Below, one piece after another: positions 3,804 through 24,091 of a stretch of DNA of 32,000 nucleotides (its first letter is position 1; the number at the start of each line of letters is the position of its first letter). The notes beneath the pieces were generated by a model that was not told where the DNA came from, did not search any database, and worked only from the letters and a program-made list of their open reading frames with translations. The position numbers were made by a program, and so were the translations under genes. Source of the stretch: Cuniculiplasma divulgatum (GTDB lineage: Archaea; Thermoplasmatota; Thermoplasmata; Thermoplasmatales; Thermoplasmataceae); the NCBI RefSeq assembly GCF_900083515.1, contig NZ_LT671858.1, positions 90,001-122,000 of the forward strand, written 5' to 3'.

Positions 3804-4570
3804 ACTGTTACAGCCAATGTGGATATATAAAACATTCTGGCGTTATATTTTCTTTATTAGAAGGAAGTTCAACTAATACGGCGATAAACAGGTTAAGCCA
3901 TTTTTATAAAGTATCGGTTTTAAATCAATGTCTATAGATAAAAACGGACCTAAATCGGTTGCTTTCATTCGTTCCATTTCACATTATCTCTCTTCACTCT
4001 GAATTTGTTGTAAAAACTATTTCAGTTGAATGCAGGTTAAACCTGAAAATTATAAGGCATTTCAATCAAAGCAGTTTGCGCAAATTCTAACAGTAAATGA
4101 CAACATCCGATCGAATAATCACTTAAACTTTTAGAAAGTTGATGTAGAGCTTAAAAAATTCAAAAAAAGGGGTATACACAGATATACATAATCAATTTGA
4201 ATTTTGAAAAGAGCTAACTTTTTGTTATCCACTTAAGAGAAAATCATTTAGTTAGATTGAATAGGAGTAGGTGAGGAGGCACAATAATATTTATAACAGG
4301 TTTATGCACATAAATGGTCAAATGCTACACTCAAATAACAAGGATACTTTGAATCTATAAATAGAGAATTTAAAGGAAATCAAGGAAATCATAGGAGAGG
4401 AGTATCCTCAAAACTCAGTATAAAAGAAAATAAATCCCTTATCTTTTCTTAGAGTTCTTATCACTGATAATTCAATAAGGTATCACTAAATACAGATACG
4501 ATATGAAAGAGAACCTTGAAATAACTTCTCAGTTTTACCTGATAAACTTAGGGTCTCGCACGAAGCAAAA

Positions 4571-4699
4571 ATGGAATGGTCATATCCAATAGCCATTGGG
4601 GAAAGGGAATTACTATTAGATCTGGTTATTGAGTCCAAAGAAACTGTGACCATTGTTGAAATCAAGTCAAGAATAAATGGGTACTCTAAAGTTATCTAA
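4571..4699 (+). pseudogene. Possible C-terminal remnant of a PD-(D/E)xK-fold nuclease domain
   Basis: The 42-codon ORF MEWSYPIAIGERELLLDLVIESKETVTIVEIKS... has a D...E-x-K-like spacing. It resembles the tail of archaeal ATPase/DUF234-type proteins. It is too short to be a whole gene and lies just upstream of repeat copy 1. Confidence 0.25.
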
Positions 4700-4731
4700 T
4701 AAAAAGGTCGCCTCCATTTAGTTGGTGGTGA

Positions 4732-4771
4732 AGTATTCACTTAAAACTTTAATTAAATCCCCGCCGGTCCA
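4732..4771 (+). repeat. 40-bp cassette-boundary repeat, copy 1
   Basis: AGTATTCACTTAAAACTTTAATTAAATCCCCGCCGGTCCA. 37/40 identical to copy 4 by hand alignment, with no indels. Confidence 0.9.
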
Positions 4772-4940
4772 CTCTGAATTTTCCTAATTCCTTAATCAAA
4801 AATAACGATGAATTCTTGCGTCAAATTTTCAGGAGGAATTTCTTGCATTCTAATTGCTGTTACACTGAGCCTACATTCAATGCTCGAAGTGACGGCTTGC
4901 AGGTAAATAATCATATACCAAAATACCATTTTTTATTAAC

Positions 4941-5201
4941 ATGAACGTGAAAACGAGTATATCTATAGATAAAAAGATTTGGATGGAACTCAAGAATCTT
5001 GCCTTAGAACGGGGTAAAGACGTAAGCTCCATACTAAAAGATGCTATAGAAAATGAACTGAATTCAAATCTTGACAAATCTTTAATGAAATATTCAATTC
5101 AGGGCACATTTGATTTAGATTTTGAACCCATTAAACCCAAAAGCAAAATATCTGATCTTATAAGGAGCATGAGGGATGACAGAGAAAGTCATATATCTTG
5201 A
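4941..5201 (+). CDS. vapB: Ribbon-helix-helix (CopG-like) VapB antitoxin
   Basis: The N-terminus KTSISIDKKIWMELKNLALERGKDVSSILKDAIE is RHH-like. It overlaps the downstream PIN frame by 26 nt. It is a paralogue of 8067-8351, sharing the C-terminal MR(D/N)(D/E)R.S..S tail. Confidence 0.75.
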   Translation: MNVKTSISIDKKIWMELKNLALERGKDVSSILKDAIENELNSNLDKSLMKYSIQGTFDLDFEPIKPKSKISDLIRSMRDDRESHIS

Positions 5202-5628
5202 CAGTAGTGCCATAATAAAAAGATATGTGTATGAAAACGGATCGTAAATTATTCGTGCACAATATCATGAAGCATATTTTGGAAATGTTCTGCTTTCATT
5301 TAATATATGGAATATTGGGGAAGTAATTGGGATATTTGACAAGGCACATAGACAAAAGAGAATAACAAAAGAACAGCTAAATGTGGTTATGGGCAGATTC
5401 TCAGATGAGACTACAAGGCTTAGAAAGATAGGCATGGTTAGGATAATCCCACTATCAGAAAGGATAATAGAGGGTAGCTGGGATTTTGTAATTAAGTATC
5501 ATATCTATGCTGCTGCTCTACAGATCACAAGTGCCCTTGAAGTTAAATGTAACGAGTTTTATACTGGAGATGAAAGACTTCACAAGGTTACTCTTTCATC
5601 CGGTCTGAAGTCCGTTTATCTGGTATGA
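5176..5628 (+). pseudogene. vapC: PIN-domain VapC toxin interrupted by an in-frame TAA
   Basis: MTEKVIYLDSSAIIKRYVYENGS is followed by TAA at 5245-5247. The same frame then continues IIRAQYHEAYFGN...NIGEV...IYAAALQI...TGDERLH to 5628. It is collinear with the intact paralogue at 8326-8766. The third acidic PIN residue (IVDAIQL in the paralogue) is Ala here. Confidence 0.75.
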
Positions 5629-5683
5629 TAGTTAATGCTTTAATAAACAACAAAACAGCAACTGAAATTAAGTGTTTTAAATT

Positions 5684-5723
5684 AGTGTCCACTTAAAACT
5701 TAAATCAAATATCGACCGGTCCA
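5684..5723 (+). repeat. 40-bp cassette-boundary repeat, copy 2
   Basis: AGTGTCCACTTAAAACTTAAATCAAATATCGACCGGTCCA. 35/40 identical to copy 4. Confidence 0.9.
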
Positions 5724-5909
5724 ATTTAGCGTCAATAAAATTTTTACATTTGGATGAATATCGTAGAATGAGAAAAATTTTCTACAATGTGAGGCATCTT
5801 AACCTTGATAGGATTATCAGAGGGATCTAATCATATACGTTGTTTCGTTTATTTTTTTTAAATTACAAGCAGAATTGATATTATAATAATGATCTATTAT
5901 CTATAAAGG

Positions 5910-6470
5910 ATGAAAAACAGCATGAATAATGGCTTTGATCCATCGGAGAGACAGAAAATCCTAAGAATAGCTATATTCTATGGTATATCCCTTCTTCTGT
6001 CGCTTCTGATCATAGTCATATCCGTGACGTTTTTTGTAATGATTATTTACCTTGAGGGAAAAGTCTCCAGCGAATTCCTATACATTTTTGTCTCAGTTGT
6101 AATAGTCAACTTTGCAATATCGGCGCTATCAATAAGGGGTCTGATGGGCCTTTATGGTTCGTTTCAATCAGAACATACGGACCGCAGAACCATCGTTTTT
6201 TCAATAAACAATAAAAGTCATGCAAGTGCTGAAAGGCCCTCTGCACCAAAGTTAAATCCAGAGTATTTCACAGATTTAGAGCTGGAGATTATAGACATGC
6301 TCAAGAACCATGGAAATAGAATCCTTCAGAGTGATATCGCAAAGACGATCAATGCCTCAAAGGCGTCCATTTCCAGGGTCATTACTTCTCTGGAAAGCAA
6401 GGGAGTCGTCGTCAGGATGAGAAAGGGCGTCACGAATGAAATAATCCTAGTTGAAACCAATTTCAAATAG
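5910..6470 (+). CDS. Membrane-anchored winged-helix (MarR/TrmB-like) DNA-binding protein
   Basis: Two N-terminal TM helices are followed by a C-terminal wHTH, LEIIDMLKNHGNRILQSDIAKTINASKASISRVITSLESKGVVVR. This layout matches COG2512-type archaeal proteins. Confidence 0.65.
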   Translation: MKNSMNNGFDPSERQKILRIAIFYGISLLLSLLIIVISVTFFVMIIYLEGKVSSEFLYIFVSVVIVNFAISALSIRGLMGLYGSFQSEHTDRRTIVFSINNKSHASAERPSAPKLNPEYFTDLELEIIDMLKNHGNRILQSDIAKTINASKASISRVITSLESKGVVVRMRKGVTNEIILVETNFK

Positions 6471-6526
6471 TTTCATGAAACCTGTTTCAGACAACAGTTA
6501 AGTGTTCTTTCAGGATACATTGCATT

Positions 6527-6886
6527 ATGGAAAAGAGAATTGAAAATCTGATATGGGTCCTTATAGGGCTCGTTGCAGTGGTTGCAGCAGTGGCGATCAT
6601 CACTTCCATCTTGTTCGGAGGCCGGTACTACAATGGAGGATACGGACCATATGGAATGATGGGTGGCTTCTATGGTATGGGCATAATAATGCCAATAATT
6701 GGGATAATATCAGTGATACTGGTTCTGATATTTGTATATTTCATACTTGACGCCATTAGAGGTCCAGTCAATTATGTCCATACAGAGAGCATATCCAGAG
6801 CTGAGGAAATCGCCAAAGAGAGGCTTGCAAAGGGAGAGATATCTGAGGAGGAGTACAGGAAGATCATCGAAACGATAATGAGATGA
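6527..6886 (+). CDS. SHOCT-domain membrane protein
   Basis: Two TM helices flank a Gly/Tyr/Met-rich loop. The C-terminal AKERLAKGEISEEEYRKIIETI is the SHOCT (DUF2078) signature. Confidence 0.7.
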   Translation: MEKRIENLIWVLIGLVAVVAAVAIITSILFGGRYYNGGYGPYGMMGGFYGMGIIMPIIGIISVILVLIFVYFILDAIRGPVNYVHTESISRAEEIAKERLAKGEISEEEYRKIIETIMR

Positions 6887-7227
6887 TAATAAAAATGAGC
6901 GCGCATAAAACTTTTGCAATAGTGGCCATATTTTTTTTCGCCGACCAGCAGGTTCACTCTGGCCTCCTTCTCCTTTCTTTCATGCAGCTTCTTTTTCGCA
7001 AAATCATATATTCTTTCTAATGAAAAGCCCACAATATATGGATAAACTTCCTTAATAATTGTAAGTACTTCGCTATAAAAAGCTTGATCTAAAGGGGTTT
7101 ATTTACGGAATATTTATAATCATAATCCTGAAAATATCTCCCAATAAATTGGTTTGTTAAACTATCAAATGAGGGCTGTTCGGGCATTATTGAAGATGGT
7201 CTTTCATAATATATACTTGTTTAAATC

Positions 7228-7267
7228 AGTATTCACTTAAAACTTCAACCAAGTCCCTACCTTTCCA
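7228..7267 (+). repeat. 40-bp cassette-boundary repeat, copy 3 (3' part degenerate)
   Basis: AGTATTCACTTAAAACTTCAACCAAGTCCCTACCTTTCCA. 34/40 identical to copy 4. The CCGG core is lost. Confidence 0.8.
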
Positions 7268-7493
7268 TATTTAAATTTGGTCCCGATGATTAAATATATC
7301 AAGTATTAGCAGACACATACCAAATCAGATAAATAGGTTCTTTGACCATGAGGAAGATAGTATTGTTGTCTGTACTTACCAACTTAGGGTTGCGTCCACC
7401 CGAAGTTTCTAGTGTACCCGGATGTGCGAAGGCTCCATGAAGCGCTGAGGGAAGCTGGGTTCTACAGATTCTTCATTTAAAAGGAGGGAATAG

Positions 7494-7804
7494 ATGATGG
7501 AGCAACAATCCCGGACTAATACCCTGATAAAATTTCATCTGGAAGAATACGAAATGAGTATGAAACACTAAAATATTCCAAGAAAATTAAAGAACTAATC
7601 ATAGGAATATTAGAGAGTGGAAACACTCTTCTTGTCATTGGTGGTGAGGATCTTGCTAAATTGGTGAACTTCTTGGCACCGGGCACTATTGGTGCTGATG
7701 TCACTATCTTTAATCCGGATCCCGACCCGGATGGAAAATATGCTATTTATGTAGTCAAAATTATTTCTGAAGGATTGAGGTACCTCGGCGTGATGCACGT
7801 GTGA
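7494..7804 (+). pseudogene. Frameshifted hypothetical gene (about 99 aa if repaired)
   Basis: A GGAGGG box precedes ATGATG at 7494. Frame 0 stops at 7569-7571, while the +2 frame is open 7520-7804 (…KIKELIIGILESGNTLLVIGGEDLAKLVNFLAPGTIGADV…). Removing the 11-nt unit 7556-7566 fuses both parts into one ORF. Confidence 0.35.
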
Positions 7805-8066
7805 TTTGTTCTGAATGTGCGCAAAGGGAGCACTGATATCCCTAAAGAGGCAACGTTCAGGACTGGAGCGGCCTCAATACTCGGTAATGGGTCCAGCAAA
7901 ACAGACTGGACCGTGAGGGACGAAGACGAAACCGAAGCAAAAGTGCGAACCTCACAATCTTCAGCTGTGAGAGTATGTCAGACCTGTTTATTGCTGTTGA
8001 ATATGTTCTCGGCTAAGAACCAAATGAGTGGAAATACTTAATACGGTTTACCATATATACGGTTAG

Positions 8067-8351
8067 ATGGTTAAAACCAAGATAACTGTATCGGTAGAAA
8101 AACCAGTGGTGGAAAACGCAAAGTTGGCACTATTGAAAAAGGGAAGGACCCTCAGCGACTACATAGAAAAATCACTTCGTTCCCTTTCCACAGCTGAGTT
8201 TCTAAGCGATCTGTGCAAGGAGCTTAATCTCGATTGCGGATACATGAGCGGGGAAGATGTAGAGAAGAACAGGCCTGATCTCACTGGTAGAGTGGAATCG
8301 GAAAAAGAAGTAAGGGAAATGCGAAATGAACGTATCTCACGTCTATCTTGA
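8067..8351 (+). CDS. vapB: Ribbon-helix-helix VapB antitoxin
   Basis: KTKITVSVEKPVVENAKLALLKKGRTLSDYIEKSL is RHH-like. It overlaps the downstream PIN gene by 26 nt. Confidence 0.75.
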   Translation: MVKTKITVSVEKPVVENAKLALLKKGRTLSDYIEKSLRSLSTAEFLSDLCKELNLDCGYMSGEDVEKNRPDLTGRVESEKEVREMRNERISRLS

Positions 8352-8766
8352 TACCAGTATACTAATCAAGAGGTACGTTAAGGAGGAAAACAGTGCCCTA
8401 GCTGACAGCTACTTCCATCAAGCCCATCGAGGGGAGACAGTTATTTGCCTGTCTGAGATCAACCTTGGCGAGGCAGCTGTTGTTTTTGATAAATACTCCA
8501 GGAAAACGGGTATTGACGCTAGAAAACGTCTCCAGGCAATGCTAAGTGAGTTGGCCATACTTGAAAGATCCTCCTCGGTTGAAATATATCCTGTTAGTAG
8601 CCAGATAATAAGGAAAGCTGTCGAGACAGTTCTTGAACAACGCATATACATTGTAGATGCAATTCAACTAGAAACCTGTATTGAATCGGGGACGACTGTG
8701 TTCTGCTCGGCTGACAGGGGACTTAATGCAGCAGCCAGGAAGCTTGGTATAGAAACAGCCCTGTGA
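8326..8766 (+). CDS. vapC: PIN-domain VapC toxin (intact)
   Basis: All four acidic PIN positions are present: YLDTS, NLGEAA, IVDAIQL, SADRGL. Length is 146 aa. Confidence 0.85.
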   Translation: MNVSHVYLDTSILIKRYVKEENSALADSYFHQAHRGETVICLSEINLGEAAVVFDKYSRKTGIDARKRLQAMLSELAILERSSSVEIYPVSSQIIRKAVETVLEQRIYIVDAIQLETCIESGTTVFCSADRGLNAAARKLGIETAL

Positions 8767-8880
8767 GTGCCGTAATATACTTTTTCTCTTCTATTTACTA
8801 AGCTTCCAATCAGGCATAAGTATCAATCCCAGGTATAATGCGAGAACAGCAACTCCCTTCTTGTCCCAAGAACCTTCAAC

Positions 8881-8920
8881 AGTATTCACTTAAAACTTTA
8901 ATCAAATCCCGACCGGTCCA
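8881..8920 (+). repeat. 40-bp cassette-boundary repeat, copy 4 (closest to consensus)
   Basis: AGTATTCACTTAAAACTTTAATCAAATCCCGACCGGTCCA. It contains the 8-bp palindrome GACCGGTC and the imperfect inverted repeat ATTCACTTAAA/TTTAATCAAAT. Confidence 0.9.
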
Positions 8921-8957
8921 TATTAAGTCATCTTGGTCAGGAAACATTTTCTATTCA

Positions 8958-9401
8958 TCATCTAATTTCATCAATTACTTTTATATCCTTGACGTTCTTG
9001 AAAGACTGGTCATGAGTGATGAGGGTGTTGGATCCTACTGACTTCATTGTGGCAAGAATTACACAGTCCCTCGAGCCAAGCCCCATGGAACCATAAGTTG
9101 ACAGAAGATTAATTGACGATTGCATGATAGTAGCGGTGAAATCAACTAGACTAAGAGTTGTGAGGTCAGCTATGATTCTCATTTTCTCGTTCAAAATATC
9201 CGGTGGGATCATCCTAAAGTAGTGTGCTACTTCCATTAAGGTAACAGTGCTGACCACTACATCACCCTGAATAGTTCTTTGCATTACATCGTCAACTGAA
9301 TCATGCTCTGGGAGTCTTTCATCGAACCAGTAAATCCAGTAATTAGCATCTACATATGATAGGACCAATGGAATCTCACTTCCAGATGTGTTTAAGCTCA
9401 A
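8958..9401 (-). CDS. vapC: PIN-domain VapC toxin (intact)
   Basis: Acidic positions are present: YVDANY, LMEVAH, SRDCVILA, ITHDQSF. An internal TTG at 9368 may be the real start. Confidence 0.8.
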   Translation of the reverse strand: MSLNTSGSEIPLVLSYVDANYWIYWFDERLPEHDSVDDVMQRTIQGDVVVSTVTLMEVAHYFRMIPPDILNEKMRIIADLTTLSLVDFTATIMQSSINLLSTYGSMGLGSRDCVILATMKSVGSNTLITHDQSFKNVKDIKVIDEIR

Positions 9402-9630
9402 GAGGATCGCTTAACGGTATCTCAGAACCTTTTTTGATAAATCCTCTCATCTTTACGCGAAATTCATCCGGGGATACAGATTTTTCAATTATTAGACGAT
9501 TGGATTCAATGTACATTTTTACTCTCATTCCATTCTTGAGTCCGAGAGAGTTTCTGACATTTTTCGAGATCACTATTCTACCCTTTTCATCTATCACAGT
9601 CTCTTGTCCCATTCCCACTTCATTTCCCAC
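9376..9630 (-). CDS. vapB: AbrB/SpoVT-family VapB antitoxin
   Basis: IDEKGRIVISKNVRNSLGLKNGMRVKMYIESNRLIIEK is a typical swapped-hairpin AbrB/MazE motif. The gene lies directly upstream of the PIN gene on the same strand. Confidence 0.8.
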   Translation of the reverse strand: MGNEVGMGQETVIDEKGRIVISKNVRNSLGLKNGMRVKMYIESNRLIIEKSVSPDEFRVKMRGFIKKGSEIPLSDPLELKHIWK

Positions 9631-9736
9631 ATATCAAATCAGTATGTAAAGTTTTCGCCGATTTTCAAATTGTAATTATTATGGGATACCGACTGATTTG
9701 AGGGCGAGGAATCTCCATGGATTGCTTGAAGAAATT

Positions 9737-9776
9737 GGTGTTCCCTTAAAACTTTAATCAAATACCGACCGGTCCA
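9737..9776 (+). repeat. 40-bp cassette-boundary repeat, copy 5
   Basis: GGTGTTCCCTTAAAACTTTAATCAAATACCGACCGGTCCA. 36/40 identical to copy 4. Confidence 0.9.
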
Positions 9777-9856
9777 TTTTAATTTTGCTCTTATATATAC
9801 ACCAGTCGGACTTAGAACATTTATGCTCAACTCTCTCGTTGCATTAGATTATGTCT

Positions 9857-10665
9857 TTATTCATGATTGGCACAATTCATCTCAGCGTATCCTTTTACAC
9901 ACTTCATGAGAGTTATAAAACTCGTAAACTCCAGATTATTAAGAGGTTTAAAAGTGTTAGGCATAATACTGGCAATTTTCAACTCACTAACAAAGCCCTG
10001 AAATGAGGTCTTAAATGAATTGAGGAAGCATTACCAAGAGAACCTTCTTAAAATGGTCATACCAGGGAATGTAACTATAATAGATTCCCCCGATGGCAGG
10101 TTATCCAGTGGTAAAATATCGTAAATCCACACTTGCATCAAAATCATACCTTGAACTTGATAAAAAGATTGGAAGAAAATAGTCGAAAACCTTTCTGGCG
10201 CTATAGAAGAATTTCCTGATGATTTAGTAAGTTGCATAATTAATATCCCTCACTTAATTTATTATATTCATTGTAAAAATAAACATTTAACATTATCTCC
10301 TGAATTATACATTCAGGTTTAACGGCCCTTACTGTTTCACCGAATAATCTCTTCATTCCGGGGAAATATATTTCAATATTCCATCTTAGGCCGTAATTAT
10401 TCTTAATCTTCCATAATTTTTCATTGAATCTTTTAATAAATCTTGTAACTTTGCATCTATAGGGAGGTCCCTTAGGTAATGTCGATGAGTTTTTTCTTAC
10501 AGGTATTGCAGTTTTATTTTTTAATTTATTGTAAATTAATTTGAAATCATATACATTATGTCCATATAGTTTCTTTATTTTCTTTTTAATTCATCTTATT
10601 ATTTTTATACCCTCCATGACATCATTGGTATTTTCACTGTGAATAAAGGAAGTCAATAAATATTA
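9857..10665 (-). mobile_element. Decayed DDE (IS4/IS5-superfamily-like) transposase fragments in permuted order
   Basis: Minus-strand frame 10590-10240 reads IKKKIKKLYGHNVYDF...IPVRKNSS...NYGLRWNIEIYFPGMKRLFGETVRA...QEIMLNVYFYN, a C-terminal D...E region. An in-frame TGA precedes it. Downstream on the same strand, 10237-9857 reads like an N-terminal part (…ILRRFSW*CFLNSFKTSFQGFVSEL…) with an in-frame TAA. Confidence 0.55.
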
Positions 10666-10683
10666 TATCACTCTATATTCATT

Positions 10684-10896
10684 ATGAATGCATGTTCTCC
10701 GATTATTAAATTTACAGAAAGAGAGAAAAATGTTTGCAACATAATTTGCAATTCAGGCAAGATAAGATTTATTGATATTAAAAATAAGAGTGGTCTTCAT
10801 CAGGAAATCCTTTCAAGAACATTGAAAAGAATAAAGGATGACTGCGGTATATCTAAATGCATTAATGGTTATGAATGCAATAAAAGTGGTCAATAA
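10684..10896 (+). CDS. Small winged-helix DNA-binding protein (hypothetical)
   Basis: The 70-aa ORF has an HTH-like segment, IRFIDIKNKSGLHQEILSRTLKRIKDDCGI. The local composition is very AT-rich. Confidence 0.4.
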   Translation: MNACSPIIKFTEREKNVCNIICNSGKIRFIDIKNKSGLHQEILSRTLKRIKDDCGISKCINGYECNKSGQ

Positions 10897-10905
10897 ATAG
10901 CATTA

Positions 10906-11193
10906 ATGAATACATTAATTGGTGAGAAAATGGCGGAAAAGGAAGTTGTACAGAAGAATGATGGCGTAGAAATTATAGTGCCAGAAAGTGCAGATGCTGA
11001 TGATATTAATGAGGTTATTAGATCATGTTCCTCAGGCGAAAATTCATGCTCATGCTGTTCTTCTGATTTTTTAAGTGAAAATAAGGTAGGCGTGTATGAA
11101 TTGAACGGGCATGAAGTTATAAAAATAATGGGTAATGTCAAAAAGGATGAAATCGAAAAGAAGATAAATAGCTGTTCATGCTTCGACAAATAA
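10906..11193 (+). CDS. Small acidic Cys-rich protein (hypothetical)
   Basis: The 95-aa ORF contains the clusters CSSGENSCSCCSS and NSCSCF. The probable start is MAEKE at 10930. It follows the wHTH gene by 10 nt. Confidence 0.35.
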   Translation: MNTLIGEKMAEKEVVQKNDGVEIIVPESADADDINEVIRSCSSGENSCSCCSSDFLSENKVGVYELNGHEVIKIMGNVKKDEIEKKINSCSCFDK

Positions 11194-11354
11194 AAATTTT
11201 AAATTTTTTATTAAATTTTATAGTAAGTTGCATAATTCATTTTAATAAAATTTACAATTAAATCTAAGTCAACTGCGCTTTTAAATGGACGGAATTGACT
11301 GGTTTTCTATAACTCCAAAACCCATCAGATTTGGTTCAAATTGTTCGGCATTTC

Positions 11355-11394
11355 GGTATTCGCATAAAGCTTTAATCGAATCCTAACCGGTCTA
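11355..11394 (+). repeat. 40-bp cassette-boundary repeat, copy 6 (most diverged)
   Basis: GGTATTCGCATAAAGCTTTAATCGAATCCTAACCGGTCTA. 32/40 identical to copy 4, with the same register and no indels. Confidence 0.7.
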
Positions 11395-12124
11395 TTTAAC
11401 ATTGATGATCACAATTCAAGAAATACAAAACCATGAGCACTGACTCAATTTTTAATAGGGAACAGAGGAACCAAATGTAATGGTAAGTCCACATGCATGG
11501 TCATAAGAAAATTCTAGAGGTAGTAAGGAGAAATGACAAATTCTCAAGTATTTGTGACTCATGTGTGACAATGTTTAAGAAACACAGGGTTTCGGTAAAT
11601 GAATACCTAAATGGGCACAGAGATTTGGTCTAACTAAATGAAGTTCTTCTTAGTGACAATATCAGGATATATGCGGAGACAATCATGGCATTGTATTCAC
11701 TTAGCTTTTCTATATTAACAAAGGAGACATTTAGCCTTTTTGCAGCCAACCAAAAAACCTATAAATACAGGATAGTTCATCTCAAAATATTCAAAACGTA
11801 CTACAGTTAAGGAAAATTATTCCTGAACTGCCTCTATATAATTTCAACAAAAGACAACAATCCGGTGGTAGAAATACAAGTGAATTTCCTCAATTATAAT
11901 TTTTCTATTCGTTGCAGAATTACATCATTCACTTCTAACCATTTTGTTAATACTTAAAATTCTAAATTATATTTTTTAAACCTAACTGATTGTCTAATTT
12001 GTCCAATATAAGATAAATATGCATTCACTAACGATTCATACATTATGAAACAAGCCTTCTTTTTTGGATAGCATCGACATAAATGTCTGAACACATAAAA
12101 CCGTACTATCCCTAATCTGATATT

Positions 12125-12617: not shown

Positions 12618-12956
12618 ATGATCGAGGAGAATAAGAAGGAATGCTCCAGTGTGGAATATGGTTCAGAAGAAAGTTTATATCTTTTACAAATGTGTATGAA
12701 ACTGAATCAAATGGGAAGCAAGAACATATCCATTTCGGAAGATGCATACTTAAGATTATCAGAGTTAAAGCTAAAGAACGAAAGTTTTACAGAACTCATC
12801 TATAGGCTGACAAATAAGTCAAATGTGCTTGACCTAAGGGGAATCATGAGTGAAGATGAGGGAAAATCCATAGAGAAAAATATTAGAGAGTCAAGGAAAA
12901 TGAGTAAGGAAAGAGTAGATAGAATTACTGACGAGTTAAATAGAAACGTTAGCTGA
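12618..12956 (+). CDS. VapB-like antitoxin (archaeal putative-antitoxin type)
   Basis: NISISEDAYLRLSELKLKNESFTELIYRL matches the short archaeal antitoxins that precede PIN genes. The likely real start is ATG 12711 (MGSKNISI...). Confidence 0.5.
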   Translation: MIEENKKECSSVEYGSEESLYLLQMCMKLNQMGSKNISISEDAYLRLSELKLKNESFTELIYRLTNKSNVLDLRGIMSEDEGKSIEKNIRESRKMSKERVDRITDELNRNVS

Positions 12957-14770: not shown

Positions 14771-15403
14771 TCACTTCATCTTCCTGAGAGACTTAAGGAG
14801 ATATTCTGGTATGGCTACGACGAGAATCATGTTATGATCTCCATCTTTTTTTTCATTCGTATCCTCAGGCTTAAAATTCTCAGGAGTGTCAACATAATCC
14901 ATAAAAGGTTTGAGTTTTTTAACGCCCGTTGAAAAGTGATCATTTGAAAGAGTGCTGAAAGAAAGATTTAGATAGCTTTTCGTTCCATCTTCAACAGCCC
15001 TCATCATGTCTTCATCTGAAACACTCATTATCTCCTGCGCAATGACTTTCAGGTTAAGTGACTGAGATAGTAAGAATGTGGCCATGAGGTTTCTCAATTT
15101 GTCAGGGGACATCTTCTTAAACTCTTCATTCATCTCTCCTGCCGTTGTCTGGTTAAAAGCAGAATCATTTAGAGAATAATATTTCTCCACATAATTTTTC
15201 CTGACAACAATATCTGGAGGATTCACGAAACCCTGTTCCTGAAGGTCTGAAATGGCCTGATAGAGATTTGACCTGCTGGTTTTGATATGTTTCGAAATCT
15301 GTGTAACAGTCATTTTTCCACTCAATGCGAGTAAGGCTATTATGTGGCTCTTTGTCTGGCTAGACATCACATCAAAGAGTTTTTCCAGTCTGTCCTGAGG
15401 CAT
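14771..15403 (-). CDS. Winged-helix transcriptional regulator (ArsR/TrmB-like N-terminal domain)
   Basis: SHIIALLALSGKMTVTQISKHIKTSRSNLYQAISDLQEQGFV. The gene is divergent from the MFS gene across a 50-bp gap. Confidence 0.7.
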   Translation of the reverse strand: MPQDRLEKLFDVMSSQTKSHIIALLALSGKMTVTQISKHIKTSRSNLYQAISDLQEQGFVNPPDIVVRKNYVEKYYSLNDSAFNQTTAGEMNEEFKKMSPDKLRNLMATFLLSQSLNLKVIAQEIMSVSDEDMMRAVEDGTKSYLNLSFSTLSNDHFSTGVKKLKPFMDYVDTPENFKPEDTNEKKDGDHNMILVVAIPEYLLKSLRKMK

Positions 15404-15409
15404 GCACTA

Positions 15410-15434
15410 AGATTTATATATAAGATATAAATCT
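15410..15434. promoter_or_regulatory. Candidate operator: perfect 10-bp inverted repeat in a divergent promoter region
   Basis: AGATTTATAT-ATAAG-ATATAAATCT is centred in the 50-bp gap between the regulator (start 15403) and the MFS gene (start 15454). It overlaps TATA-like sequence. Confidence 0.35.
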
Positions 15435-15453
15435 ACGTATAAGGCAAATTTAT

Positions 15454-16686
15454 ATGAGTAATGAAAACATACACGATTATAACCAGTGGAATAAGTTCCT
15501 GAAGTATCTTATGGGAAGAAATATCATCAGGGTAGCCTATTTTATATTCAACATATTCTTCGTTTGGAGAACAATTGTCGCGTACAATTCAGTTTTTCTT
15601 GCAGGATTAATACCAGCATTCTCACTGCTTGGATACCTGATCATAGTAATACCAGAGGGCCATATTCTTGACAGGCATAACAGAGGCACAGTTTTCAGGA
15701 TATCCTCTTTGCTGCTTGCGTTCACATATCTGATACTGGTTTACAGTGACAGCCTTGCCATTGTTTATCTGGTCGCACTCGTATCTTCCATACTATCATC
15801 AATAAATTCTGATGCTTTCAACACAATTCTAAAGGAAACCGTGAACGAGGAAAAAATTCAGTCTGCAGTTTCCCTGAGTCAGGGAACAAATGCGGTTTCA
15901 GAACTGTCAGGGATCATAGCAGGAGGGATTCTTCTATACCTTCCCTTTGAGTTTCTTGCCATCACCCTCTTCTCTCTACCTGTCATATCTCTCCTATTTG
16001 GGTTAGGTAAAACGCTGAATAGATCAGGCACGGTGGACAAATACGGTTTCAGGGGAGCATACCGTATTATACTGGTGCTTGTGCCTTTCCTAATGCTATC
16101 TTTACTCCTAAACGGTCTGTTCATCTCTCTGGATGTCTTCGGATCCGGTCTAATACACATAATTCTACATGGAACGCCATTTGATTATTCTTTATTTATT
16201 GCCGGATTCCCGTTCGGGATCATAGTTGGTTCTCTCTTCACAGGAAAGCTTTCTGGTGTAATAGCGAAGACAGGTACAATTTCCATACTTCTCGTTCCCA
16301 TGGGAATAGTGCTTCTATTTATTGCACTTTCAAGAATCATCTATCTTGATATAGCACTGGGAATTTTACTTGGGGTCATAGTGATATTTATAAATATAGG
16401 GCTTCAGACCATTTTCATGAAGGCAATACCGGATGGTGTTATGGGGAGGGTAAATTCCCTTGTCACAATTTTTTCAATTGGAGGTTCACCCCTGATGGCT
16501 GCACTTTTCAGTATACTCTCTAATTATTTCTATTTCCCATATATAATGGCTGCTGCAGGAATCTGTGCAGTTCTAGTTTCACTTCCTGCATTTAGGATTT
16601 TGAAAAATTTACCCGAAAAAGTGTCAGGTATTGCCAGGTTAGTAGAAAGTGAGGGTGAGTCCAATCTTATTCAGCAACCCTCTTAA
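15454..16686 (+). CDS. MFS transporter
   Basis: The 410-aa ORF has about 11-12 TM helices and an MFS motif-A-like loop, GHILDRHNRG. Confidence 0.8.
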   Translation: MSNENIHDYNQWNKFLKYLMGRNIIRVAYFIFNIFFVWRTIVAYNSVFLAGLIPAFSLLGYLIIVIPEGHILDRHNRGTVFRISSLLLAFTYLILVYSDSLAIVYLVALVSSILSSINSDAFNTILKETVNEEKIQSAVSLSQGTNAVSELSGIIAGGILLYLPFEFLAITLFSLPVISLLFGLGKTLNRSGTVDKYGFRGAYRIILVLVPFLMLSLLLNGLFISLDVFGSGLIHIILHGTPFDYSLFIAGFPFGIIVGSLFTGKLSGVIAKTGTISILLVPMGIVLLFIALSRIIYLDIALGILLGVIVIFINIGLQTIFMKAIPDGVMGRVNSLVTIFSIGGSPLMAALFSILSNYFYFPYIMAAAGICAVLVSLPAFRILKNLPEKVSGIARLVESEGESNLIQQPS

Positions 16687-16755
16687 TTAAATGCAATCTT
16701 TAAACAATGAATTATTAACCAACAGTCAAAATATGAGGTTCCCTTCTTAAGTATT

Positions 16756-18141
16756 ATGAATAAATGTTTAGATATGAAAGTTGACGTTCTAATTATAGGC
16801 GCAGGGGGTGGCGCATATCCTGCCGCATTCAGGCTTGCTGGATCTGGAAAGACTGTTCTTATGGCTGATCCAAAAGGTGTGCTTGGGGGAAACTGCCTCT
16901 ATCTGGGGTGCATCCCGTCAAAGACAGTAAGAGAGCTTATCGAGATAAATGAAAGGTCGGGCAGATTGCTTGGTTCAAAAAATCATGCTGATTTCAGATT
17001 GATTCAGCAGCATAAGGATGACGTGCAGCAAATGCGTTTTGACCAGCACAACCGGGAAATGTCAGAATTCCAAAGTCTGAAATTCATGAAGGGAAAGGTG
17101 AGTTTTACAGGAAAAAACAGCGCAAAGGTATCCACTGAAAGTGAAATGATCGATGTGGAATTTGATTATGCAATCATTGCAACAGGAACAGTCGTTTCAA
17201 GGATATCGTTCCCGGGATCTGATTTTTGCATAACAAGTGATGATATATTCTCATTCGGTTCAGAAATCAGGGAAATTCCAAAGAAAATGGTGATTGTGGG
17301 CGGAGGTTACATAGCACTTGAGGTTGCAGATATGTTCCACGCCCTTGGAACAGAAGTGCATCTTTTTGTTAGGACAGAAACGGTCCTCAGGAACGTTGAC
17401 AGAGATCTTGTGAATATTGCTTATCCACTTATAACACCATACCGGGTTCATATGAATACAATCATTAGAGATATAACAGGACAGAGGGGGAATCTAAAGG
17501 TCAACTACACTGAGAATAGAGATGATCTTAACATGGAGGCAGATGAGGTTCTACTTGCTGTAGGAAGAAAGGGTGTTGTTCCCGAAGGATTGGATCTCAC
17601 TGGAGTGAAATACAGCAGCAGGGGCATTATAGAAGTAAATGACACACTACAGACAAATGTTTCACACATTTATGCAACCGGTGATATAACAGGAAGAACA
17701 CCGTATTTTCATGCTGCGGTCAGGGAATCACTGGTTGCAGCAAACAACATTCTGGGTGATACCACAGACAGGATGGATTTCCTCAATGTACCAGTCTCAA
17801 TATTCACCTACCCTCCAATTTCATACATAGGTATATTGAGAGATGAGGCAAGGAAGAGGGGTATGGATATAGTGGAGACATCCTATGCCATGTCAGGAGA
17901 TTCACGGGCGCAGATGTATGAGGAACAGGATGGTGAGATAAGGCTATTCTTTGAAAGAAAGACAGGAAGGATAGTTGGGGGATGGGTTGTAGGATTAGAT
18001 GCACCACAGCTCATTAATGAAATAGGCACAGCTGTTTTTAATTCGCTGACAGCATCCGATATGTCCAAGTTCCCGGATCAGCATCCCACCACAAATGAAG
18101 GGATATCCAAGGCAGCAAGAGCCTGGAAGGGTCCCACATAA
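16756..18141 (+). CDS. Class I pyridine nucleotide-disulfide oxidoreductase (dihydrolipoyl dehydrogenase-like)
   Basis: FAD fold IIGAGGGAYPAA, redox disulfide GGNCLYLGCIPSK, NAD fold VIVGGGYIALE, ATGDITG, and C-terminal HPTTNE. The start may be ATG 16774. Confidence 0.85.
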   Translation: MNKCLDMKVDVLIIGAGGGAYPAAFRLAGSGKTVLMADPKGVLGGNCLYLGCIPSKTVRELIEINERSGRLLGSKNHADFRLIQQHKDDVQQMRFDQHNREMSEFQSLKFMKGKVSFTGKNSAKVSTESEMIDVEFDYAIIATGTVVSRISFPGSDFCITSDDIFSFGSEIREIPKKMVIVGGGYIALEVADMFHALGTEVHLFVRTETVLRNVDRDLVNIAYPLITPYRVHMNTIIRDITGQRGNLKVNYTENRDDLNMEADEVLLAVGRKGVVPEGLDLTGVKYSSRGIIEVNDTLQTNVSHIYATGDITGRTPYFHAAVRESLVAANNILGDTTDRMDFLNVPVSIFTYPPISYIGILRDEARKRGMDIVETSYAMSGDSRAQMYEEQDGEIRLFFERKTGRIVGGWVVGLDAPQLINEIGTAVFNSLTASDMSKFPDQHPTTNEGISKAARAWKGPT

Positions 18142-18383
18142 TCAGGTCAACATTTTTACATAAAAAATACAACTTTTTTCAGTTCACCTTTCACGCATTA
18201 ACCATGAAATGACATTAAAAAAATAGTGTAATTAGAAATTTACATTAGGCAATCAGACCGCATGTATTATCAACCCTTATTTTAAATTAAAAAATAGCCT
18301 TATAGCCTGTTTCTCTATGATTTATTTTTTACTTTTCATGTAAAGCAGAACATCTTATTTATAGAATATATATTCATTAACAT

Positions 18384-18635
18384 ATGAAAACAGATTTTAT
18401 TAGCCTAAGACTTGACACGAAAACTTCAACAACTGTAAGAAAATTAATCTCACTCCGTTTGGTTAAAACCAAGACGAACGCTCTGAAATTCATAATGAAA
18501 CACGGTATAATGGAAACAACACATATAATCGAAAACAAAGAAGAAAGCCGTAGAATAATAAAGAAATGGAAAGAGGAAGGATTTCCAGTTCTATCTGAAG
18601 ATCTATCAGACATATCGATCAAAGAAAGAGAATAA
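18384..18635 (+). CDS. Putative antitoxin of the downstream PIN gene
   Basis: The 83-aa ORF has an N-terminal beta-strand-like ISLRLD. Its stop abuts the PIN start (TAAATG). Confidence 0.45.
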   Translation: MKTDFISLRLDTKTSTTVRKLISLRLVKTKTNALKFIMKHGIMETTHIIENKEESRRIIKKWKEEGFPVLSEDLSDISIKERE

Positions 18636-19046
18636 ATGAATTATATAGATAAGAATGTCATTCTTTGTTACCTTAATAAAAACGATTTAAACCATGATAA
18701 GGCAGCAAAGTTATGGGCAATAAATGAGCCAAAAGTGATATCTAAAATTACCTTACCTGAGCTTAGGTCAGTTCTTTCAAGGAAAACAAACCTAAGTGAA
18801 GCAGAAATAGAGGCTTATGTTGAACATTTACCCGATATAGGTTTACAAATTGTAGAATCTGACCTAAACAGAGTTTTCAACCGAGCTTCTGAAATGGTAT
18901 TTAAAATTAAAATGAAAACGTTTGGCACTTTGCATATTTCTGCCTGTTTAGAGATCAATGCTTGAAACCTGGTAACACTTGATTACGAGTTTGTGGAAAA
19001 AAATAGAATCATATCTGAACTTGGCATAAACATAGTTTCAAGATAA
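18636..19046 (+). pseudogene. PIN-domain toxin with in-frame TGA (109-aa ORF plus a 26-codon continuation)
   Basis: MNYIDKNVILCY... (PIN N-terminus) runs to ...TLHISACLEINA, then TGA at 18963-18965. The same frame continues NLVTLDYEFVEKNRIISELGINIVSR* with the typical PIN C-terminal lvT.D motif. The Asp normally before LHIA is Gly/Thr. Confidence 0.55.
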
Positions 19047-19262: not shown

Positions 19263-22200
19263 CTAAGATGAAAGTAAACTATTAGACACTTCAAGATATT
19301 TTCCAGGTATTGGATTTTTCAGTTTCCATATTATGTTCATTGGTCTACTGCCCTCATGGCTATAATATTCCACTGTGCCAAGGAAAGTATATGGAAATGC
19401 ACCTGTTTTATCTTCTTTATTTTCTCTGACAAACAGTAAAACTTTACTTCCATATTCTTTATGATTTATGTATCTCTTTCCAGTTTTTGAATCGACTGAT
19501 GTTGTGCTTTGGCTTTGCCAATGGAACAATGTATCATTAATCGAGTAATCTTCGTAGAGTGTTGTTGGAGTATAATCCCCTTCTTTCTTGTTTAATGTCA
19601 CAAATAATAAATCTATTTTCCATTTTGGAATGTATTTGACACCTTCTCTCATATTTTCAGGAGAATCAATGTCCATTGCCACTAAAATTTGATCTCTTGT
19701 GTAATTGCAATGTAGGTCAAGCGGGCAATCAAAACCAACATTAACTGGACTGTCCAGGAAATCTATCTTGTCCAGTCTTAGCTCCAGTAACTCTATTATT
19801 TCATCCAGAAATGGGCCACTTGACTTTATTCTATTAATTGCTTCCTCCGGAGATTTAAAACCACATTGGTCGAATGATTTTTTCCAAACAGTGTATTGAA
19901 ACATGTTCAGCATCCTTCGTTCTGTTTGAGACATTTTACTAACATCAGGTAGATTGTTTGATTTAAGGACATTCAATAGGAAGTTAATCCACCTTCGTGA
20001 GTCTATGGAACAAAGCTTAAGAAATGCTTTAGTCATTAAAGTTTCCATGTCACTATTAAAATCAGGGGCTAAACCAGAATCTGCCTTTAATCTTGAAAAA
20101 CTCGTTTTTGAATAGATTTCCCTCAAGTCCAATTGATAATATTCAATGAAATTTTTGAGTGTTAATGGTAGCCCAGTATCTGCAGTAAAAGTGGAAACCA
20201 GGGACTTTAACTTAGATCTTGATCCAACTGCCTGTCTTATATTATCAAGTATAAATTCCTGAGCTCTTCTTTCAAGCTGAATATAGCATCCCTTAGGTAC
20301 ATCTGGAAATCCATCTGTAATCTCTCTTTCCAATCTCATATGGGTCTTAGAAAGCATTGCAGAAAATTTTTCTCTGAAATTATAATTTTTATTAGCCTGT
20401 CCAACAAAATCAAGGACAGTCAGGCAATCTTTTCCCTCAGAAATCCTTAGTCCTCTTCCAAGTTGCTGCAAGAAAATGGTAAGACTCTCAGTTGGTCGAA
20501 GAAACATGATTGTGTTTATACTTGGAATATCCACACCTTCATTATAAATATCCACAGTAAACACAAATTTTATCTCTCCTCTTTCCAGCAACTCTTTTAT
20601 ATTTTTTCTTTCATCATTCTTAGAGTTGCTGTCAATGTACATAGACGTTATTCCATAAGAATTGAATTGTTCAGTCATGAATTTACAATGCAATTGTGAA
20701 ACACAGAATCCTATGCCCCTGACGTTCTTTATATCGTCTACATACTTTGTAAGAGCATCAACTATGTTGCTAACTCGTTCCATTGAAGACCTGTTTCCAT
20801 CGCTATATATCTGACTTAATTGGTCCTTATCATATCCTCCCCTAACCCATTTCACATCTTTTAGATCTATATTGTCCGTTATCCCAAAATACTGGAAAGG
20901 TGATAGCAACTTTCTATCAATCGCTTCTGGGAGCCTCATTTCGGCTGATATTTTGTTTTCAAAATATTTTAGGATATCCTGCCCATCCATCCTCTCTGGT
21001 GTCGCTGTCAGACCAACCAGTATTTTTGGCTTATAATAAGTAAGTAATTGTTGATAACTTGGAGCTGATGCATGATGAAATTCGTCTATAATGATAAAAT
21101 CATAATAATCGCTTGCGGTTCTAGTTGTCATATCCCTTGAGTTGAACATTTGTATTGACATGAAAAGATGATCCAGTCTATTTGGAATATTATCTCCAAC
21201 GCCAATCTCTCCAAAGTTTTGATCCCTTAGCACACTTCTAAAGCAATCTATTGCCTGTTCAAGTATTTCTTTTCTGTGTGATACAAATAGTAGACGATTA
21301 GTTTTCCCTTGATTTTGGGTTCTGAATCTTTTATAATCTAAAGCAGATATAACAGTTTTGCCTGTTCCGGTTGCCGCAACTATTAGGTTTTTATATCTAC
21401 CATGAACAACCCTTTCTGCTTCGAGCCTGTCAAGGATTTCCTGTTGATATGCAAATGGATGTATGTCTGCTATGAATTTTGAAGGATTCTCTTTTCCAAT
21501 ATTTCTTTCAGAATTTATAGCAGAAACAAGTTTATCCCTTTTACCATTTGAATAAGACTCAAAATCATGAGACTCCCAATAACTTTGAAATGTTGCCTTG
21601 ACCTTATTCATCGTTTCTAACATGTCCTTTTCCGTTATTTTTACATTCCATTCAAGTCCACTGGAAATGGCTACATTAGAAAGATTTGAGGACCCTATGT
21701 AAGCAGTAGAAAAACCGGTGTCACGATAAAATATGTAAGTTTTAGCATGTAACCTTGTACGCTTGGTATCATATGAGATTTTAATCTCTGGGCTTTCACC
21801 GTTCTTGTTTTTAAGATTATTCAATTCTTCTATCGATTTTACGTCAGTTGCACCCATGTATGTTGTAGTTATAATCCGAAGTTTACCATTTTTTTCAAAG
21901 AATTCCCTCAATTCATTAATTATTAATCTAATACCACTCCATTTTATGAAAGAAACGAGAATATCAATTCTATCAGATGATAAGATCTCTTTTTTTAGTT
22001 CAGAATACATACTAGGCTCCCTAGATGCCCCAGTAAAGAGAGAACTTTGTGAAATAGAAGTTATTGGTCTTTCTATTTTATCTACTGTGCAACCAAGACT
22101 CTGGCTTTCCTTTTTATCAAAAATCGCCAAAAGGTTTTCAATTCTTTTCTCATGATTATCAGAAATGTTTGGATAGAGATTTTCATCTTTTCCCAGAGAG

Positions 22201-22454
22201 TCTAAAATTTTATTTACAATATCTATTTGCTCACTAATTCCATGTCCACGGCTCCTTACATTATCAAGGGTTTCCCTTATTAACCCACTCAGGTATAAGG
22301 TAAGTACTTTGGAAGAATCATCATCATCTATTGGAGATTTTTGAAAATCAGTATGGTTGGACATAGATTCCAATTCGTTTTTAATCAAATCGTTAATGAG
22401 TTGTTCATAAATCCCTTTCTTGAGCATATCTAAACTTTTAAGTATACTCCCCAT
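19263..22454 (-). CDS. SauUSI-like type IV (modification-dependent) restriction enzyme: PLD nuclease + SF2 helicase + DUF3427
   Basis: The 1063-aa ORF has an HKD/PLD motif (RLHAKTYIF...GSSNLS). Helicase motifs are AATGTGKT, IIIDEFHH, GLTATPER and QQLGRGLR. The C-terminal region (LFHWQSQS...LLFVRE...FLGTVEY) matches my recollection of DUF3427. This is the same three-part layout as SauUSI. Confidence 0.75.
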   Translation of the reverse strand: MGSILKSLDMLKKGIYEQLINDLIKNELESMSNHTDFQKSPIDDDDSSKVLTLYLSGLIRETLDNVRSRGHGISEQIDIVNKILDSLGKDENLYPNISDNHEKRIENLLAIFDKKESQSLGCTVDKIERPITSISQSSLFTGASREPSMYSELKKEILSSDRIDILVSFIKWSGIRLIINELREFFEKNGKLRIITTTYMGATDVKSIEELNNLKNKNGESPEIKISYDTKRTRLHAKTYIFYRDTGFSTAYIGSSNLSNVAISSGLEWNVKITEKDMLETMNKVKATFQSYWESHDFESYSNGKRDKLVSAINSERNIGKENPSKFIADIHPFAYQQEILDRLEAERVVHGRYKNLIVAATGTGKTVISALDYKRFRTQNQGKTNRLLFVSHRKEILEQAIDCFRSVLRDQNFGEIGVGDNIPNRLDHLFMSIQMFNSRDMTTRTASDYYDFIIIDEFHHASAPSYQQLLTYYKPKILVGLTATPERMDGQDILKYFENKISAEMRLPEAIDRKLLSPFQYFGITDNIDLKDVKWVRGGYDKDQLSQIYSDGNRSSMERVSNIVDALTKYVDDIKNVRGIGFCVSQLHCKFMTEQFNSYGITSMYIDSNSKNDERKNIKELLERGEIKFVFTVDIYNEGVDIPSINTIMFLRPTESLTIFLQQLGRGLRISEGKDCLTVLDFVGQANKNYNFREKFSAMLSKTHMRLEREITDGFPDVPKGCYIQLERRAQEFILDNIRQAVGSRSKLKSLVSTFTADTGLPLTLKNFIEYYQLDLREIYSKTSFSRLKADSGLAPDFNSDMETLMTKAFLKLCSIDSRRWINFLLNVLKSNNLPDVSKMSQTERRMLNMFQYTVWKKSFDQCGFKSPEEAINRIKSSGPFLDEIIELLELRLDKIDFLDSPVNVGFDCPLDLHCNYTRDQILVAMDIDSPENMREGVKYIPKWKIDLLFVTLNKKEGDYTPTTLYEDYSINDTLFHWQSQSTTSVDSKTGKRYINHKEYGSKVLLFVRENKEDKTGAFPYTFLGTVEYYSHEGSRPMNIIWKLKNPIPGKYLEVSNSLLSS

Positions 22455-22645
22455 TGTATAAATAACATGCTTACTCGTTTGAAAATAGAATGAATGGTGG
22501 GAATCTCACGTTCCTGATTGTAAGTGAAGTCGGCCATTTGTTGACTTCTTCAAGGAACCAGAGAGATTTATAAAGGAAAATTTCGGGTCATGTCTATTTC
22601 TGTCCATTAAATTTAAAGTTCATTCTATTTTAATTCAAACTAGAA

Positions 22646-23434: not shown

Positions 23435-23436
23435 TT

Positions 23437-24060: not shown

Positions 24061-24091
24061 ACAGGTAAATATAGTAAAAGAAAATAAAGTT

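Follow-up and report, generated by a model that had tools for sequence, protein, structure and literature searches.

The closest described systems are integrative elements that insert at the 3' ends of tRNA genes (with attB, attP, attL and attR sites), among them those of the archaeal pNOB8-type non-partitioning tyrosine integrases. In these systems the block of identity runs from the T-loop to the tRNA 3' end, integration restores the tRNA beside the integrase gene, and a partial tRNA repeat marks the far junction. Tandem integration at one locus and loss of the integrase are both known for archaeal elements (PMC8371274). We investigated a 32,000-nt stretch of the Cuniculiplasma divulgatum genome (contig NZ_LT671858.1, positions 90,001 to 122,000; hereafter the window), in which six co-oriented copies of a 41-nt repeat separate small gene units. 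The site logic is that of classical tRNA-3'-end integration: the repeat carries the same identity block, and in related genomes the tRNA stands next to an integrase gene with a partial tRNA repeat at the far junction. We consider it probable (roughly 70%) that the six repeats are attR-type junctions of integrases targeting tRNA-Ala, and that together they form an accretion array of small units with mostly toxin-antitoxin (TA) cargo. Unlike the classical elements, most units here lack an integrase and measure only about 1 kb, a 20-nt arm conserved across genera forms part of the far junction, and neither the tRNA nor the integrase adjoins the array in the window.

A repeat search of the window recovers a single family with six plus-strand copies (4727-4776, 5679-5728, 7223-7272, 8876-8925, 9732-9781 and 11350-11399). 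The original prediction, made from the sequence alone, had counted six co-oriented copies of a 40-nt element at these places, and its description of the copies is confirmed: the spacings are 952, 1544, 1653, 856 and 1618 bp, recounted identities to copy 4 are 37, 35, 34, 36 and 32 of 40, and an alignment of the six copies contains no indels and shows flanks that are unrelated between copies. Used as a query with up to three mismatches, the 40-mer matches copies 1 and 4, against none expected from 100 shuffles. A profile hidden Markov model (HMM) built from the six copies recovers all of them (E values 1e-15 to 2e-11) and finds no copy elsewhere in the 32 kb; its sole further match with E < 1 is a weak reverse-strand self-overlap in copy 6 (E 0.018). 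In LT719092.1, a record nearly identical to the window, a decayed seventh copy precedes the window start by 256 bp (L029:8892-8935; L-numbers denote loci from related genomes, metagenome-assembled genomes (MAGs) and metagenome contigs, L029 being LT719092.1 and L030 being G-plasma ATDV01000004.1). The conserved block, as defined by 59 non-redundant copies of many genomes, comprises 41 nt, positions 2-42 counted from 4732, and its edges are very sharp: at position 2 the information content climbs to 1.7 bits from about 0.2, and past position 42 it drops again.

The element consists of two parts. Positions 22-40 (TCAAATCCCGACCGGTCCA) exactly reproduce the 3' end of the tRNA-Ala(CGC) genes of L023, L050, L052 and L053; these 19 nt comprise the T-loop, the 3' strands of the T-stem and of the acceptor stem, and the discriminator. 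Half-length profile matches in related loci turned out to be the tRNA-Ala 3' end. One of these loci, L023, holds a bona fide tRNA-Ala(CGC) gene (4376-4305, ending in ...GGGTTCAAATCCCGACCGGTCCA) and, 3.5 kb further on the same strand, a copy of the element (773-733). Positions 2-21 (GTATTCNCTTAAAACTTTAA) are not tRNA; conservation of this 20-nt segment, which we call the P arm, at least equals that of the tRNA part in the 59 copies. No annotated biology had initially been recognised in the repeat; because half of it is the 3' end of tRNA-Ala, it belongs to the known biology of tRNA-targeting integrases. The palindrome GACCGGTC to which attention had been drawn is real, but it is the junction of T-stem and acceptor stem of the tRNA. 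For the internal core architecture proposed from it and from the imperfect repeat ATTCACTTAAA/TTTAATCAAAT, tRNA sequence together with an arm is the better explanation. The true inverted partner of the P arm is found on the other side of the core, where it adjoins an integrase gene.

This integrase gene, which we name int2, ties the site to a recombinase. In three independent metagenome contigs (L050, L052 and L053) an intact tRNA-Ala(CGC) is followed by TTTAATCTATTAATCGAATAC and then by int2; L054 has the tRNA 3' end at the contig start, followed by the same arm and int2, and in L051 a relative of int2 is placed likewise after a tRNA-Val. In L027 a 44-nt tRNA-Ala fragment is followed by TTTAATTTATTAATCGAATAC and an open reading frame (ORF) with a tyrosine-recombinase box I (AFSGLRPESL). 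Of the 20 positions of the P arm, 16 agree with the reverse complement of the spacer (GTATTCGATTAATAGATTAAA), those of GTATTCGNTTAA among them, and the two arms are thus inverted repeats around the tRNA block. A search for the pattern of arm, core and inverted arm yielded one metagenome contig, L055, in which AGTATTCCCTTAAAACATTAATCAAATCCCGACCGGTCCA-TTTAATCTATTAATCGAATAC is directly joined to int2. The original prediction had placed the recombinase outside the window, and it is in related DNA that an int2 gene adjoins the site. The homologues of int2 are 427-aa proteins of Ferroplasma, Acidiplasma and other Thermoplasmatales that carry the source annotation "site-specific integrase", and PF00589 is precomputed on several of them. 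For a profile of 12 members, Pyrococcus XerA is the sole match in the PDB, and the columns R150, R271, H298 and Y306 are invariant; judged by sequence, int2 is a divergent tyrosine recombinase. At the other end of an element, L007 begins with the last 12 codons of int2, continues with four small genes (1.7 kb of cargo), and reaches arm plus core. The resulting order of tRNA, core, inverted arm (P'), int, cargo, P arm and core is the anatomy expected for an integrated element, and in this comparison the window repeat takes the place of its attR-type junction. Relatives of int2 were not found in viral contigs, and the attR sites of the tRNA-Val element of L051 and of the larger int2 element of L053 were not found in the contig sequence searched.

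Two other int2 loci have their own layouts. At L056:9686-10615 (the same in L057 and L058) a frameshifted int2 pseudogene with a stop at codon 4 is preceded by the inverted arm and just 16 nt of core, with no tRNA or P arm to the left; it stands at the front of an island that contains a type III restriction-modification (R-M) system, ParE and an OLD-like ATPase. At L049:9931-9969 (minus strand) arm plus core lies immediately upstream of an int2 relative, in the orientation opposite to that in L050-L054, which could reflect an integrase-mediated inversion or a different arrangement of the element.

In the mechanism that we propose, a circular element with arm, core and inverted arm would recombine at the core of the tRNA. 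Integration would rebuild the tRNA beside the inverted arm and the integrase gene, and arm plus core would remain at the far end. Since every copy of arm plus core still offers a core, further elements, including SSV-type elements that target the same tRNA end, would insert at these copies, and the locus would grow by accretion. The result would be a row of units, each terminated by arm plus core. Most units now measure 0.5-4 kb, have no integrase and contain addictive or defensive cargo (VapBC/PIN, ParE/RelE and Fic, with R-M systems in neighbouring strains).

Copies of the element in related genomes are clustered, and a genome scan found them only in Thermoplasmata. A degenerate pattern of the 21 positions invariant in the six copies, scanned over 185,579 species with one genome each, matched 28 loci, all from this class (Cuniculiplasma sp., Thermoplasmataceae and Thermoplasmatales MAGs); the pattern had no match in 2.9 million viral contigs. 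A profile re-search of the 28 loci gave about 70 copies, often in arrays of three to seven. The 38 units in non-redundant loci range from 0.48 to 4.2 kb (median 1.3 kb), and the ten commonest unit proteins include PIN (four clusters), ParE/RelE (two), Fic and a TPR protein. In other genomes the units act as exchangeable modules, and individual units recur in different surroundings. A ParE/RHH unit (L008:5908-6887) is found again at L014:2840-3822 with 88% identity, from element to element, and the neighbours on both sides differ; L018:116-2126 corresponds to L022:73-2085 (87%). Copies of cassette 3 of the window that are 93-94% identical to it end at the element in L019 and L024 and are followed by different units, and L013 shares the last approximately 30 nt of this cassette plus the element, with a different downstream neighbour. 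In pairs of copies that share only the downstream flank, the mismatch fraction is 0.6-0.8 up to position 1 and about zero from position 2; in pairs that share only the upstream flank, mismatches rise at positions 41-43. Furthermore, a SnoaL-like gene that follows tRNA-Ala in L023 stands behind arm plus core in L008, L015 and L027; the homology begins within the core. The presence of the same gene behind either the tRNA or arm plus core fits the interpretation of the repeat as attR. These comparisons demonstrate the anatomy of the site, its tie to an integrase gene and the exchange of bounded units between genomes.

A second family of integrases uses the same core. According to a published account (PMC7253208), the SSV-type integrase is "suicidal": its att site lies inside the int ORF, which integration splits into Int(N) and Int(C). 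Integrases of this type (PF16795) are present in the loci studied here, where their att site is the 44-nt tRNA-Ala fragment inside the int ORF; the ORFs that start inside such fragments in L002 and L027 match the PF16795 archaeal phage integrase with an E value of 1e-50. In L002 a complete mini-element of 2.5 kb, consisting of Int(N), two genes, Int(C) and the 44-nt fragment, is inserted at arm plus core, and its 63-aa Int(N), which ends in ...MDRSGFD, reads into the core. Decayed stubs of Int(N) also occur behind the core in L024, L007, L027 and L044. The stub behind copy 1 in the window was detected by tblastn with the intact Int(N) of L002 (46% over 37 aa, internal stop, E 0.002), and the equivalents at the same position after the element are far stronger in L002, L024 and L007. 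Apart from this stub, tblastn detected no bodies of int2 or SSV-type integrases in the window or in the array interiors. The position of Int(N) directly after the core indicates that copies of arm plus core served as integration targets. We also considered the 41-nt element as an SSV-type junction in its own right and rejected this idea: the P arm is not int coding and places a stop codon right after MDRSGFD, and the upstream flanks are unrelated. Unlike SSV-type junctions, the 41-nt element is the target of these integrases, and the Int(N) remnants downstream of some copies are secondary insertions. A serine-recombinase (resolvase) gene in L027 (3202-3510, plus strand) is preserved only for about its first 60 codons; there it meets an element copy and looks as if an insertion at the element had cut it.

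Integration islands of other organisms offer further comparisons. In the tycheposon islands of Prochlorococcus, successive integrations at a tRNA site leave partial tRNAs between the units and push remnants inward (10.1101/2020.12.28.424599). The array described here has probably grown in a similar way at one tRNA-derived site. Streptococcal cis-mobilisable elements (CIMEs) are att-flanked units without a recombination module. As in CIMEs and tycheposons, the Thermoplasmata loci contain att-bounded units without a recombinase of their own in tandem with integrase-bearing units, and the array maps of L007 and L027 show both kinds of unit mixed. The differences are that these loci belong to another domain of life and another integrase family, that their units are far smaller and dominated by TA genes, and that two unrelated integrase families (int2-type and SSV-type) use one core.

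Sedentary chromosomal integrons, such as the Vibrio superintegron with its VCR attC sites, likewise consist of rows of approximately 1-kb, TA-rich units between highly similar repeats. This resemblance is what speaks for reading the array as a true integron, with IntI and attI and with promoterless cassettes that each carry a folded attC. However, the window repeat is a double-stranded site, half of which is the 3' end of a tRNA, and no IntI, attI or Pc promoter accompanies it: IntI and attI are absent from the window and the 9.1 kb to its left, and the integrases found elsewhere are int2-type and SSV-type. Folded as single-stranded DNA, eight of nine strands do no better than shuffles (five of six top strands and all three bottom strands have z scores between -0.2 and +1.6 and energies of 0 to -2.9 kcal/mol), and copy 6 alone folds modestly (-5.4 kcal/mol, z -2.0). 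Inspection of the consensus revealed no RYYYAAC/GTTRRRY boundaries, and with 54 unit genes co-oriented with the element and 42 opposite in the non-redundant loci there is no orientation bias. We therefore regard a true integron as most improbable, close to excluded, although the array bears some functional likeness to one. Two explanations offered in the original prediction, a cassette array built by site-specific recombination and serial att scars at an integration hot spot, prove correct in essence and describe one and the same thing; its likening of the array to integron cassettes fails, for want of an attC-like hairpin, an IntI and co-oriented cassettes.

Two insertion sequences of the IS110 family, about 70% identical to each other, are inserted in the P arm in two genomes. 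In G-plasma (L030:16397-17733) the insertion abuts the first base of the equivalent of copy 3 (7228 in the window); in L019 it occupies approximately 5773-7130, at element positions 9-11, with CTT on both sides. The left end of the insertion sequence resembles the displaced target. IS1111 elements target integron attC sites, and the insertions in the P arm recall this preference.

The repeat might instead be a portable regulatory sequence, that is, a rightward BRE/TATA promoter, a terminator or a REP-like element whose likeness to a tRNA is incidental. The motif AAAACTTTAATCAAAT is TATA-like, a similar motif (TTAATCGAAT) occurs upstream of int2 and of tRNA-Ala in L050 and L053, and the elements lie mostly between gene ends. 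The rightward promoter of the original prediction, with a start about 25 nt downstream of CTTTAATC, finds no support: in 31 of 43 cases the gene that comes first downstream of the element lies on the opposite strand, and the remaining 12 cases have it on the same strand. Neither the 19-nt identity to tRNA-Ala, nor its extension to 44 nt in the neighbouring SSV-type sites, nor the linkage to integrase genes is incidental, and copies are clustered, with none outside the array in 32 kb. A regulatory role as the explanation for the repeat is thus very unlikely.

Within Cuniculiplasma the locus changes little. The window is 99.97% identical to LT719092.1 over the first 11.8 kb and 98.9% over 20.8 kb, and the order of the six copies is unchanged in G-plasma and in every spanning contig read from acid-mine MAGs and metagenomes; the array is old and close to fixation. 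It continues left of the window (L029/L030:1-8935). There G-plasma carries one more copy, beside a ParE/RHH pair (L030:1477), a decayed one (L030:2198) and a type III R-M unit flanked by decayed copies, whereas the near-identical PM4 record has another R-M system together with an OLD-like ATPase at that position. The entire "defence island" seems to belong to this accretion.

Two further observations concern this comparison. A GC-rich block of about 200-250 nt is nearly invariant at seven loci of different Thermoplasmata genomes: it lies at L030:7040-7290 (plus strand; about 7049-7283 in L029), approximately 1.9 kb left of the window start, and also at L001:6165-6415, L003:4350-4600 (minus), L005:1-195, L023:3258-3505 (minus), L028:2015-2260 and L056:16765-17015. 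Its predicted consensus fold is strong (-60 kcal/mol), it has no Rfam match, and the synteny break between PM4 and G-plasma, with different type III R-M systems leftward, coincides exactly with its left edge; it could be a structured RNA or another recombination target. Divergence of the window from LT719092.1 is mosaic: the first 15 kb or so has 0-3 mismatches per 500 nt, and two blocks beyond it (15000-19000 and 22000-24500) have 5-31 per 500 nt. Strains may thus have recombined recently, independently of the repeat.

Several findings weigh against the interpretation of the array as an accretion of attR-type junctions. The six-copy array is collinear in all Cuniculiplasma contigs read that span the region. 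The sole strain difference at copy 1 is that L044 has other cassettes to its left, and there the identity changes from 91% to 99.7% about 160 nt downstream of copy 1, inside the shared Int(N) remnant; to judge from the alignment, this switch looks like homologous rather than site-specific exchange. Among the related loci the crossover inside the element could not be placed, as too few informative sites exist among the flank-linked polymorphisms. Scans of the window revealed neither a tRNA gene nor an Rfam family; the 9.1 kb read to its left likewise lacks a tRNA-Ala, and as neither stretch contains an integrase, the integrase link rests on other genomes. Our own Pfam scan places the PF00589 match of int2 just below the curated threshold. 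Finally, a convincing inverted arm is found downstream of one of 67 copies, the one adjacent to int2, and no int2 remnants occur inside arrays.

The last two findings bear on how the array was built. Plain tandem integration of complete elements would be the simplest account, and we rejected it as a full one: each internal junction should then keep arm, core, inverted arm and int, and among the first 28 loci only L002 and L027 have integrase genes. Because the array copies lack inverted arms and int2 remnants, tandem integration is insufficient and an extra step is needed, which would be either mobilisation in trans or systematic loss of the integrase halves. We favour the former over systematic loss, at about even odds: an integrase acting in trans would recombine successive copies of arm plus core and thereby excise and reinsert units that have no integrase. 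Identical units in different arrays are indirect evidence for such help from an integrase-bearing element.

A serious alternative is that the repeats are inert scars. If this were the case, the copies would be fossil attR junctions whose integrase halves were lost by deletion, and the units would later have been shuffled by homologous recombination across the 41-nt repeats and the shared Int(N) remnants, with no integrase acting on them. The array is static in near-identical strains from distant sites, the only strain breakpoint (L044) falls in the 91%-identity tract of about 160 nt downstream of copy 1, decayed copies exist (L029:8892, L030:2198 and L024:7924), and loss of the integrase after integration has precedent in archaeal elements (PMC8371274). 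However, among about 75 copies at 30 loci the traces of integrases are limited to L002, L027 and the int2 end in L007, apart from short Int(N) stubs. The arm is about 95% conserved across genera, with knife-edge borders and unrelated adjacent DNA, which is hard to explain for neutral scars, and the units are small and uniform (median 1.3 kb) without a spectrum of decay stages. On this evidence we consider inert scars unlikely.

The accretion reading can also be extended to a functional analogue of integrons, in which a trans-acting 427-aa integrase circularises and reinserts units of about 1 kb with the help of a 41-bp double-stranded site. tRNA-Ala and every copy of the element would then be acceptor sites, and the TA and defence islands of acidophiles may assemble over time in this manner. 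We put this forward tentatively, as a possibility that is on balance somewhat doubtful. The papers searched contain no prior description of the 41-nt site, of the 427-aa integrase family or of such miniaturised, TA-dominated arrays without integrases in Thermoplasmatales. Table 1 lists the features of the array in the window.

Table 1. Element copies, cassettes and associated genes of the array (positions in the window).
Feature	Position	Strand	Evidence or remark
5' fragment of an approximately 344-aa gene	4458..4699	+	ends 32 nt upstream of copy 1
Element copy 1	4732..4773	+	P arm 4733-4752, then tRNA-Ala 3'-end block 4753-4771 with 3 substitutions
Decayed SSV-type Int(N)	4752..4853	-	reads into the core of copy 1
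Cassette 1: RHH antitoxin (4941-5201) and broken PIN toxin	4941..5628	+	Pfam RHH_1
Element copy 2	5684..5725	+	repeat search and profile HMM
Cassette 2: membrane MarR/winged helix-turn-helix protein (5910-6470) and SHOCT protein (6527-6886)	5910..6886	+	precomputed Pfam MarR/DUF7343, SHOCT
Element copy 3	7228..7269	+	core partly decayed, CCTTTCC for CCGGTCC
Cassette 3: DUF6364 antitoxin-like protein (8067-8351) and PIN toxin (8326-8766)	8067..8766	+	Pfam
Element copy 4	8881..8922	+	consensus-like
Cassette 4: PIN toxin (8958-9401) and AbrB/MazE-like antitoxin (9376-9630)	8958..9630	-	Pfam PIN E 3.5e-15, MazE_antitoxin E 2e-4
Element copy 5	9737..9778	+	repeat search and profile HMM
Cassette 5: small ORFs, 70 aa and Cys-rich 95 aa	10684..11193	+	ORF list; no significant Pfam family
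Element copy 6	11355..11396	+	most diverged, 32/40
Orphan VapB-type antitoxin gene	12618..12956	+	precomputed Pfam VAPB_antitox; right of copy 6

Several of these genes have counterparts in other arrays. The gene fragment left of copy 1 matches, with 75% nucleotide identity, a gene that is present at full length behind an element in L018, L022 and L023; the encoded protein of about 344 aa has a nuclease-like N-terminus and a weak Pfam signal for a helix-turn-helix. Together with a 248-aa partner it forms a recurrent cassette (L018:942-1973, L022:226-1260, L023 and L001), and neither protein has a significant Pfam family. The PIN assignment in cassette 1 is weak; it was called on the 80-aa product in L030, L035 and L044 and on an intact 151-aa allele in L042. 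A homologue of cassette 2 (72% at the nucleotide level) is present elsewhere in L004, and the ORFs of cassette 5 are preceded by about 0.9 kb of non-coding or decayed sequence. The orphan antitoxin gene right of copy 6 has neither a bounding element nor a PIN partner, and it matches antitoxins of element-bounded VapBC cassettes in L008, L015 and L019 with 74-80% nucleotide identity. It is probably cassette material that has lost its element, and the array probably once reached past copy 6.

The window also contains TA and defence genes without bounding elements: an RHH-PIN pair (18384-18965), a 1063-aa PLD-nuclease/helicase protein (DUF3427; 19263-22454), an AbiEii nucleotidyltransferase gene together with an unannotated upstream partner that is AbiEi-like by position (22646-24060), and a RelE/RHH pair (28715-29198). 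A block of ABC-transporter genes left of copy 1 was considered as a homologue of the ABC cassette of L007 and was set aside, the similarity being distant only.

The repeated use of one site derived from tRNA-Ala explains how TA-rich "defence islands" are assembled in Cuniculiplasma and in other Thermoplasmatales from acid mines, and the analysis defines a compact 41-bp site together with a candidate integrase family. If the units without an integrase are mobile, they would represent a second, independently evolved system of cassette capture and would provide a natural tool for site-specific integration in archaea. If they are not mobile, the array is a clean case of accretion of att scars, which annotators should recognise as such rather than as a novel repeat.

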